A stretch of 64,000 bases of DNA from Candidatus Obscuribacteraceae bacterium (GTDB lineage: Bacteria > Cyanobacteriota > Vampirovibrionia > Obscuribacterales > Obscuribacteraceae): NCBI GenBank assembly GCA_044226015.1, contig JBGAHS010000004.1, forward strand, positions 480,001 through 544,000. Reading direction: 5' to 3'. The position numbers and the translations under genes are program-made. The notes beneath the pieces are model-generated. The model searched no databases. It saw nothing but the letters and a program-made list of their open reading frames with translations, and was not told where the DNA came from. Shown piece after piece: positions 25,120 to 32,516 of the stretch (its first letter is position 1; every line of letters starts with the position of its first letter).

Positions 25120-26523
25120 ATGAATACCCCAAGTTCAGGGCCCGGTGAAAATCTGGATTCAGCTGCAAAATTGATGTTGGACGCTCTCTCCAAAGCGTCT
25201 TCCGAGCTGGAAAAAACTGTCAACATTTTGACAGAGCAACTAGTTAGTTTTAACCAGAATCTTGAAAAATCCTTCCAGGACGAACTGTTGGCGTCGCGCG
25301 AGAGAATGGAATCGGCTTTGCGAACCAACCTCGATGGCTTGATGCGCGACAAAGAAGCTGTGATGAAAACCATCGCTGAGTTCAAGCGCGCTGAGATTGA
25401 GAAAGTCATTTTGAGTGGCAAAACCGTTCGTTCAGGTCTTGCGGCGCAGGTTGAGGATGCAACCCGCGAACTTTCTTCTACTGTTGCAAGCAAGATTATC
25501 GGAATCAAAGAACATCTCAGCCAACCAGAAGCAGAAATCAAAAGCAAGCATGACGAACTCAACAAGGTATTGCTAACAGCAGTTTCTGAAGCGAAAGCCC
25601 AGCTTTTGAAAACAAAATATGGCGAAGAAGAAATGCTCAAAATGACAGAGAGCGATTTCGAGTCGAAGGTTCAGGTGCAGCTTGCAGCTGGTCAACAAGA
25701 ATTCGATTCACGATTCTCGCAAAACAGAGCTGAGTTGGCTTCTCACGGTGAGCAAGTTGTAAGTGAACTTGCTGCTAAGTATGATGAGGTGATCGGTCGC
25801 TTGGAGGCGTCCTATCAGGAAGGCATTAACGTCGTCACGAAAAGTAGTGAAGAAGCAAACAGCAAACTAAAAGGACTTGCTGATAATGGTGCTGAGTTTT
25901 TCACCCAGCAAGAGCAATCTTTTGCCGGAACATTGACCAATCTTAGTGAGTTGCTAAATGGGCTTTACGAAATGAGGTTGAATAATCTGGCAGCTCAGTC
26001 TCGAACAGAGATTATTTCTGCAGCACAGCACGCTGATGAATGCTTGATAGCAACCAAATCGGAGTTGCAGGTCTGCTTAAAGGAATTCCAGCGCGACTAT
26101 GTTGCTCAGTTTGAAGCTCTGCACACAAAATTCGAGAAGAGCCTCGATGAGTTTGCCAAAAGAAAAGACTCCGGTGCCATCAGAGGCTTGAAAGAAGAGC
26201 GTGTCAAAGAGCAACTTCATGCACTGTTTCGCAGGCTCGGTCAAGAAATGATCGACAGCTCAGCAGCAGCAGCTAATCGTCTTGAGTCAGAGTTCCAACG
26301 TTCAATGGATGCTTTTGAGCAGAGAATCGAAGCAGCTAAGACTCAGTCCTGTGAGTCGCTTGAACGAGAATGCAAGTTGATGCAAAAAGAATTGATTCGT
26401 ACCTTCCAGGAGTTTGAAAAACAGCTCGGTGACATGCAAGGTCAGGTTGCCCTCATTGAGAAACAGGGACGTGATGCAGCAAATATTGTTATGACGATCA
26501 GGCAAGCAAATCTTGAGTTTTAG
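25120..26523 (+). CDS. Hendecad coiled-coil (apolipoprotein-like) protein A, 467 aa
   Basis: GGAGA SD. All-helical composition with hydrophobic residues every 11 aa (LAAQVEDATRE/LSSTVASKIIG/IKEHLSQPEAE/...). No TM segment or signal peptide. Confidence 0.85.
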   Translation: MNTPSSGPGENLDSAAKLMLDALSKASSELEKTVNILTEQLVSFNQNLEKSFQDELLASRERMESALRTNLDGLMRDKEAVMKTIAEFKRAEIEKVILSGKTVRSGLAAQVEDATRELSSTVASKIIGIKEHLSQPEAEIKSKHDELNKVLLTAVSEAKAQLLKTKYGEEEMLKMTESDFESKVQVQLAAGQQEFDSRFSQNRAELASHGEQVVSELAAKYDEVIGRLEASYQEGINVVTKSSEEANSKLKGLADNGAEFFTQQEQSFAGTLTNLSELLNGLYEMRLNNLAAQSRTEIISAAQHADECLIATKSELQVCLKEFQRDYVAQFEALHTKFEKSLDEFAKRKDSGAIRGLKEERVKEQLHALFRRLGQEMIDSSAAAANRLESEFQRSMDAFEQRIEAAKTQSCESLERECKLMQKELIRTFQEFEKQLGDMQGQVALIEKQGRDAANIVMTIRQANLEF

Positions 26524-26541
26524 GCAGAGGTTGGTGAATAA

Positions 26542-32000: not shown

Positions 32001-32516
32001 CTGCGTCCTGTCCTGATGACCAATCGAGAGAAAATTGAATCGGTTGTGCAAAAGGCTAATGGCTTGAAGTCATCAGTCGAGGTTGGTCAGAAAGAAGTCT
32101 TCGAAGGTATGCTTGCCTCCTTGCACCAGTATGTCGAGGAGAAGTTAACCGAAGCTAGAGCCATCGCCGATGCGAGCATGGAAGAGTTAACACGTATTGA
32201 AAAGAATGTATTTGCTCTTTCTGACGCTGCCGGTATTGAGGCTGACCCTGAGTTAGCGGAAGCTAAGGTTCAAGTTCTATCAAAGCTGCAAGATATTGGC
32301 ACGCACCTACAAGAAAAGGTAAACGACTCTCTGCGCAGGCAGATTGCTGGGCTCGAAGATAAGAGCCGTATGCTGCAGGAAGAGTTGATATCTTCAATGG
32401 AGGGTGACGCCTACGGAGTTCGTAAGGCTGCAGAAGCGAACGTTCAGAAGATCAAGCAAACCATCGAAGCTACTTACGCCAAGATTGCTGCATTGCAAAA
32501 TCAGTATCTGCAGTAA
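29004..32516 (+). CDS. Protein C: N-terminal ~200-aa globular domain, Pro-rich disordered linker, C-terminal hendecad coiled coil, 1170 aa
   Basis: ATGA overlap with the upstream stop. C-terminal ~445 aa show 11-residue periodicity (LEQQAQRATVR/LEQKLDEQQLR/MHSDMMQNVSK...). Confidence 0.85.
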   Translation: MTFSLFQAHLAFHSVFPYLKLMPPYCEQSPEDWSSSEAVNIKPGDVIFVLDPIFSPWGNKTQGIGVSEGDKFRVAQVLLPFKQDSGFPMSIALSADSYEMQFVETILCVKADAARMAGHGFYYLHIRPKKELSAAQIGQIADLHKYGSSGSRTATPRQLPDPAYAFFTALDIALEPTFAKNPMDIEMLAFYLYSDYDSAPAGRAPNISDTFIPVKRTDAPPPARTPAASSTTTTKPSNTSNSAADYGNQSLMALLSDDWVPGGKVEQKPAPIPASSGPPATSPPAAPAPPAPSSKPAASSQDSVKGMAAEIASLVDGLSMNNASEPQSEKSSKVQMAPSPGMKVAPPPPPPGVSTARALHPPNHPLRKKGEKDNGESGATPAPTTPQPTIPQASVPGVPGPIPMYGAKDGSEKKQTTQSEKKVTLEALLNSGGALPVEAPKEGPSFIFGDSAAKSSGPSDLAKSAFPSSAGPGTDAKDDDANPLGLELKPLDSAKSEAEPELEPTPVVAEPEPEPTPVVAEPEPEPTPVVAEPEPTPAPEPTPAPEPVALVVTPEKKEEPIAASIAASIATEPSAVSTPPSPSPAPRSAVSSASDIFGSADSSNPFNDEPLFGAPTASAPVAPAAAEPAPAVEQAPAPAAEQEPAPAAEQEPAPATEQAPAPAAEQAPAPAPEQAPAPAAEPAPVAASSAPNIVSSVDSIGISPPSMSQSGSYQSVKEPTPAGVSGLIAKLEQQAQRATVRLEQKLDEQQLRMHSDMMQNVSKLTAKENQSQNNVLSLRTVLSRRLTSAGEDLKEQLKDVSEKGCETIKDSSTSTSASINEMATSLSGEVLQAFDDLGSSTVGLASSYGEKAESEQQNRLVEVSEVLHSLQSKLEGISRQHFKVIQGHYDLVERRLQQLNEHSVAELNDSSQRLKSELLLHKEDCVNRLNALSDELADTIHESLALCGLSINSHAESLATSDFIPKLMSFKQGHSSSAQRLREQYKEEVEKAATIKLAELRPVLMTNREKIESVVQKANGLKSSVEVGQKEVFEGMLASLHQYVEEKLTEARAIADASMEELTRIEKNVFALSDAAGIEADPELAEAKVQVLSKLQDIGTHLQEKVNDSLRRQIAGLEDKSRMLQEELISSMEGDAYGVRKAAEANVQKIKQTIEATYAKIAALQNQYLQ
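30495..31055 (+). repeat. Coding tandem repeats: 33-nt (EPEPEPTPVVA) x3, 18-nt (PEPTPA) x2-3, 24-nt (PAPAAEQ[A/E]) x~7
   Basis: Directly visible in the DNA and the translation. Confidence 0.85.

Follow-up and report, generated by a model that had tools for sequence, protein, structure and literature searches.

A conserved operon predicted to encode a three-chain hendecad rod in the Obscuribacterales

Why should a bacterium carry three adjacent genes for long coiled-coil proteins with rods of nearly equal length, and do their products belong to a single structure? The question is raised by the genes A, B, and C in a stretch of 64,000 nucleotides (the window) from contig JBGAHS010000004.1 of a Candidatus Obscuribacteraceae bacterium (assembly GCA_044226015.1). 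The three co-oriented open reading frames lie on the forward strand where an initial annotation had placed them (Table 1), which had also proposed that their helical parts, all with an 11-residue (hendecad) periodicity, co-assemble. Our comparison of homologs argues for a real, conserved, and undescribed three-chain rod, the architecture of which is well supported. To the whole reading, namely that a hetero-oligomeric hendecad rod of about 67 nm (450 residues times the textbook rise of 0.149 nm per residue) acts as a cytoplasmic scaffold or tether, we assign a probability of roughly 0.5.

The three rods and their common register

Each protein contains a rod helix of about 445-460 residues. Hydrophobicity peaks at a Fourier period of 3.655 residues in A (power 28.0), 3.665 in the B rod (57.7), and 3.68 in the C rod (33.3), where 3.67 had been expected; the maximum among 200 shuffles per rod is 10.0-10.8. 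Heptad power (period 3.5) does not exceed 3.4 in 88-residue windows of the rods, and the means of the family alignments peak at 3.655, 3.668, and 3.68 for A, B, and C, with a lag-11 autocorrelation of 0.50-0.55. In A, 16 consecutive units keep a hydrophobic residue in the same column, and no transmembrane segment is found in A, B, or C (highest 19-residue Kyte-Doolittle means of 0.55, 1.18, and 0.96), so that the early description of the rods stands. The AlphaFold2 model of A consists of the two helices given in Table 1, with a mean predicted local distance difference test score of 79.2 and a predicted template modelling score of 0.22, and the latter value means that the model gives A no tertiary fold of its own.

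Covariation between chains of the same operon was scored as corrected mutual information summed along diagonals, with entropy stratification and removal of the leading components, on 106 (A-B), 81 (A-C rod), and 82 (B-C rod) paired rows. Every pair of rods gives one parallel band, at offsets of -20 to -25 for A-B, -5 to -9 for A-C rod, and +16 to +18 for B-C rod, and the three offsets close as A(i)~B(i-20)~C(i+706). Antiparallel bands are about half as strong or weaker, and 19 of 21 local windows agree with the band. In this register the rods begin together near A20/B1/C726 and finish at A467/B447/C1170, which would place the C head and its leash at the N-terminal rod end and the B tail at the other, as foreseen when appendages at opposite ends were first suggested.

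It may be objected that the three proteins are separate or homo-oligomeric and that the band stems from shared ancestry, periodicity, or the alignment. Several points weigh against a common rod in this respect: the alignments are shallow (effective 41-57) and paralogy of the rods is possible, the top single covarying pairs lie mostly off the band, charge and volume show no register, the band recurs in five of six split-half tests with a failure for A-C in one half, and a neighbour-swap test kept most of the band, which means that it rests on deep branches. However, shuffling of 11-residue column blocks, which preserves phylogeny and period, reaches the band score in 0 of 200 trials per pair, and the rods show no band with the C head or the downstream gene in any of six controls. 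The closure of the offsets and the lack of orphan genes argue in the same direction, and so do the indels: among 81 operons, the multi-residue indels common to all three chains, which occur in paralogous operons, all map to a single bin of the shared register. Their sizes in A/B/C are -10/-8/-10 (six loci of one clade), -6/-8/-11, -3/-12/-7, -1/-7/-9, 0/-7/-9, and 0/-4/-7, and they may represent few independent events. Separate chains are in our view very unlikely, and the parallel in-register A/B/C rod is well supported by these sequence comparisons. Hendecads form near-straight or slightly right-handed bundles, and the three chains would zip into such a bundle of about 67 nm. Its most plausible form, which we hold to be highly probable, is a parallel 1:1:1 hetero-oligomeric bundle, either a trimer or a multiple of one.

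The same helices might also lie side by side as apolipoprotein-like amphipathic belts on a membrane or lipid body, without packing on each other. The A profile matches apoA-IV (E 1.2e-14) and apoA-I (1e-8), the Pfam family Apolipoprotein is matched with E 1.7e-4, 1.8e-8, and 9.6e-6, the fold that the C head resembles contains a lipid pocket, and parallel belts could show in-register covariation too. Yet the scores for PF01442 are 21.8, 34.8, and 25.9 bits, compared with a Pfam cut-off of 90. Apolipoproteins are characterized by 22-mers punctuated by proline and by the class A pattern with flanking Lys/Arg. In contrast, the median number of prolines per rod is 2 in A, 0 in B, and 2 in C, and neither Pro-punctuated 22-mers nor periodic prolines were found in the rods (108, 108, and 85 sequences). 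The net charge of a rod is about -20, and Lys/Arg residues are only mildly enriched at the edge of the apolar face, with a one-sided peak in B and C and none in A, in a comparison that had no positive control. Also, PhaC_N (class I/II polyhydroxyalkanoate synthase) is missing from the five genomes searched with a working control, and WS/DGAT and PhaE gave matches in 0 of 5, but there the controls were silent. Such belts therefore seem unlikely to us.

Distribution and integrity of the module

The C head profile is present in 94 of the 107 genomes of the order, among them 36 of 39 good genomes, and in none of 300 genomes from elsewhere in the phylum. Among 251 genomes of the class, full-length matches to A at E<1e-100 occur only in the order's two families. 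Among 1.84 billion representative proteins, the C head profile finds 116 matches, of which 114 start within the first 20 residues and two are weak, internal repeats.

The initial annotation had allowed that homologs might not be co-located in relatives. This was not found, as B directly follows A in all of the 110 A loci fetched, which are most, not all, of the operons found and include this locus and one duplicate row. The C head follows B in 108 of them, and the remaining two loci end at a contig edge. C is split in two loci, either by mutation or by an assembly error. At L147, L156, and L114, C lies in two frames or its rod is shortened, by decay or assembly error. The source genome possesses four complete operon copies and no orphan gene. 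In trees of 81 operons, 43 of 44 strong A splits recur in B and the C rod and 37 in the head, without any strong conflict between the trees of A, B, C rod, and head; since this congruence includes paralogues, the trio was duplicated as a whole. Most genera have the operon behind the pdh operon, and paralogues occupy other sites. Genomes G063 and G022 have kept the pdh operon and its usual downstream gene while all three module genes are gone, so the module is lost as a unit and some lineages can do without it. The trio is an all-or-none three-gene module, and gene order, congruent trees, the covariation band, and co-located indels favour the co-assembly that had been proposed.

Neighbouring genes evoke a signal-carrying or effector-recruiting stalk, similar to the ZorA tail and tied to a sensory or defence system. 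All three rods weakly match ZorA tail regions (PADLOC E 3e-6, 6.5e-9, and 1.8e-5), and this tail is described as a right-handed coiled coil, pentameric and about 70 nm long (PMC11946911). Some paralogous operons of the source genus adjoin PAS-REC-Hpt or cheB-cheA-Hpt genes (L057:13725-15266, L059:13955-15520, L050:4692-6317, L052:4522-5976, L049:502-5604), which is the most tangible clue to a sensory role. A gene resembling ADP-ribosyltransferases (ART-like) follows C in many other genera (60 loci), and CheW is likewise absent from the three good genomes that do not have the module. On the other hand, A, B, and C have no transmembrane or MotA-like domain, and CheW occurs in 66 of 107 genomes versus 94 for the C head, being absent from the module-bearing genomes G011, G013, G016, G023, G120, and G146 (92-96% complete) and from 3 of 3 of the sister family. 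The ART-like gene is missing from the source genus (0 of 8) and occurs without the module elsewhere, and a near-universal, mostly single-copy, tree-congruent inheritance would be unlike that of a patchy defence system. A stalk of this kind appears distinctly unlikely.

The ART-like gene itself (conserved; 210-240 amino acids; motifs HGT, FF, and EPVVL, which suggest an ADP-ribosyltransferase-like fold; L039:5507-6205 (-), L035:4033-4677 (-), and 60 other loci) is present as a single copy in 57 of the 251 class genomes, all in the order, is absent from the source genome, and lies near the pdh locus wherever examined. It belongs to no known family, with matches to Pfam ART-PolyVal at E 0.02-0.08 in two of nine and to a Tpt1 structure at E 0.75. 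In one paralogue clade, an EF-hand protein is encoded directly upstream of A in some genomes (L058:5149-5844 (+), L036:3911-4591 (+)). In another family of the class, a conserved locus codes for a coiled-coil protein of 1786-2417 amino acids with a period of 3.61-3.63 (L066:6111-12107 (-), L067, L068, L069), which is unrelated to the module and itself a candidate scaffold.

Appendages of the rod and surroundings of the operon

Members of the A family comprise 455-497 amino acids (median 470, n=107), the C rod has a median length of 455 (n=70), and between anchors the rods are nearly indel-free at about 20% identity. The linker of C ranges from 118 to 1200 amino acids in 70 homologs; it is Pro/Ala/Glu-rich and acidic, with short hydrophobic patches. 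The B family spans 431-821 amino acids (median 449, n=109), the present copy being the longest and the runner-up having 647. The domain plans first drawn for the three proteins hold for this copy, but the long disordered tail of B is not family-wide: its 376 amino acids compare with about 25-45 in close relatives, and it is not a conserved part of the module. In this tail (window 27900-29000), three copies of the motif GDLAASILGPSPL and four NPF motifs lie amid Ala-Pro runs, and the NPF-like end is common to the closest relative examined. That rod length is the fixed quantity suggests a spacer or strut, and rod length and register held together with a leash of varying length are what one would expect if a strut or scaffold were moored flexibly.

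The C head conserves G44, G150, R152, and P162. Its best structural matches, with weak Z scores, are to the permuted papain-like NlpC/P60 fold; the profile match is not significant, and an xxGDxxF start is common to both. In contrast to NlpC/P60 proteins, the C head has no conserved catalytic Cys or His: no column holds His in more than 35 or Cys in more than 52 of 83 sequences, and at the helix start where Cys is expected, a position mapped from secondary structure, 80 of 83 have Pro. The likeness of the C head to this fold is weak and does not extend to the catalytic residues.

For the preferred scaffold or tether the following sequence of events can be envisaged. A, B, and C would be made from one transcript and in matched amounts, to judge from the tight gene spacing, before they zip together. 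The C head, a putative catalytically dead binding module tethered by an acidic, disordered leash whose length is free to vary, would dock the N-terminal end of the rod to a membrane lipid or an acylated partner. The leash would recruit clients, and the conserved ends would join rods to one another or to a second partner; we give this division of tasks about even chances. A bolder version, which we rate as rather unlikely, is that obligate three-chain 67-nm rods join at their ends to form a cytoskeleton or polar meshwork specific to the order. A lipid-binding pseudo-peptidase on a tunable, disordered leash would moor it, and the four paralogue versions in this genus would be four non-mixing scaffolds, some of which serve chemosensory sites.

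As had been described, a gap of 18 nucleotides separates A and B, B and C overlap by four (ATGA), and a hairpin closes the operon; it lies at 32541-32572, has 14 pairs counting G-T, and is followed by a T run. The hairpin scan gave 10 sites versus 9.3 expected in shuffles, so that the weight of the hairpin lies in its position and length. Upstream are four genes that we take, from motifs read by eye in the translations (Pfam was used for part of the neighbours), to be tig, clpP, clpX, and lon. The operon follows them on the same strand in this genus and in genera g37, g40, and g41, which would fit a proteostasis helper, i.e., a partner of ClpXP and Lon that acts as a prefoldin-like holdase or as a protease adaptor. 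The location after the pdh operon in most genera, and the separate sites of the paralogues, make such a helper extremely improbable.

Table 1. Features of the A/B/C operon and its upstream neighbours (window positions)
Feature	Position	Strand	Remarks
tig-clpP-clpX-lon	18923..24896	+	co-oriented, upstream of trio; outside module; neighbour in some genera only
gene A	25120..26523	+	467 aa; hendecad rod only (helix 12-348, loop, helix 356-462)
gene B, entire	26542-29007	+	821 aa
gene B rod	26542..27876	+	residues 1-445; B(i-20) covaries with A(i)
gene B Pro/Ala tail	27877..29007	+	376 aa; lengthened in this copy; most homologs have a short one or none
gene C, entire	29004-32516	+	1170 aa
gene C head	29004..29618	+	~205 aa alpha/beta domain
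gene C linker	29619..31160	+	~510 aa in this copy
gene C rod	31161..32516	+	residues ~720-1170; C(i+706) covaries with A(i)
terminator-like hairpin and T run	32541..32582	+	closes operon; consensus scan only

Further downstream, genes for a class-III aminotransferase, an aldehyde dehydrogenase, and an acyl-CoA dehydrogenase (window 32741-36863, +) form, judging from their predicted products, a catabolic operon for an amine or amino acid. A Gly/Ala-rich protein of 3668 amino acids (window 37229-48235, +) is probably a large secreted or surface protein; it has what is likely a signal region, and Pfam gives no match to it at E<=0.001.

Comparison with known systems

A confident match to a characterized family, the other outcome against which the initial annotation had cautioned, did not appear. 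Pfam, NCBIfam, and PADLOC contain no convincing match to A, B, or C; the best sub-threshold ones are Apolipoprotein, PspA, and the ZorA tail, and we read those to Apolipoprotein and ZorA as sub-threshold resemblances. In the literature searched, with most subscription papers outside its scope, we found neither a description of a three-chain in-register hendecad rod nor anything on the cell biology of the order. The module is carried by nearly all genomes of a non-photosynthetic order related to cyanobacteria, its predicted register allows a direct bench test in E. coli, and the natural paralogue sets would reveal how hendecad chains choose their partners, which is useful for designing long hetero-specific rods.

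Laminin and fibrinogen consist of three different parallel in-register chains with appendages at their ends, a plan that the A/B/C rod would share by analogy; they are animal, secreted, heptad-based, and disulphide-linked, and no sequence link to them was found. With the exchangeable apolipoproteins (PF01442), the best sequence matches of the rods, the 11-residue amphipathic period is common, whereas the distance to the cut-off, the lack of periodic Pro, and the evidence for chain-to-chain register set A, B, and C apart. PopZ is a small homo-oligomer, unlike chain C, whose helix of about 450 amino acids is predicted to need two partner chains. PopZ consists of a binding element, a disordered region, and a C-terminal helical oligomerization domain, the helices of which form trimeric coiled coils and filaments (PMC12999525), and chain C would have the same domain plan. 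No PopZ family hit to A, B, or C was obtained at E<=1 in Pfam or NCBIfam.

The ZorA tail is described as a parallel bundle, a homopentamer fused to a membrane motor (PMC11946911). Its length and parallel arrangement recall those predicted for A/B/C, in agreement with the weak profile matches of the three rods, but A/B/C has no transmembrane domain, three different chains, and vertical inheritance. The N-terminal MotA-like membrane domain of ZorA is not found, as PADLOC and NCBIfam matches are confined to tail regions and are far below the cut-off where one is given. Described bacterial coiled-coil scaffolds are homopolymers or, in ZicK/ZacK of Anabaena, a two-chain heteropolymer; the latter's adjacent coiled-coil genes are neighbours in 53 of 72 genomes, and their products assemble only together (10.1101/553073). 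ZicK/ZacK belong to the same phylum and share with A/B/C the adjacency of coiled-coil genes. By description, ZicK/ZacK are a pair of chains with SMC-like domains and several segments of coiled coil, whereas A/B/C has three chains, continuous hendecads, strictly matched rod lengths, and a leashed head; no SMC family is among its Pfam or NCBIfam hits. By analogy, A/B/C would work most like ZicK/ZacK and would match the ZorA tail in size and texture, but by these tests it is a member of neither of them, nor of PopZ.
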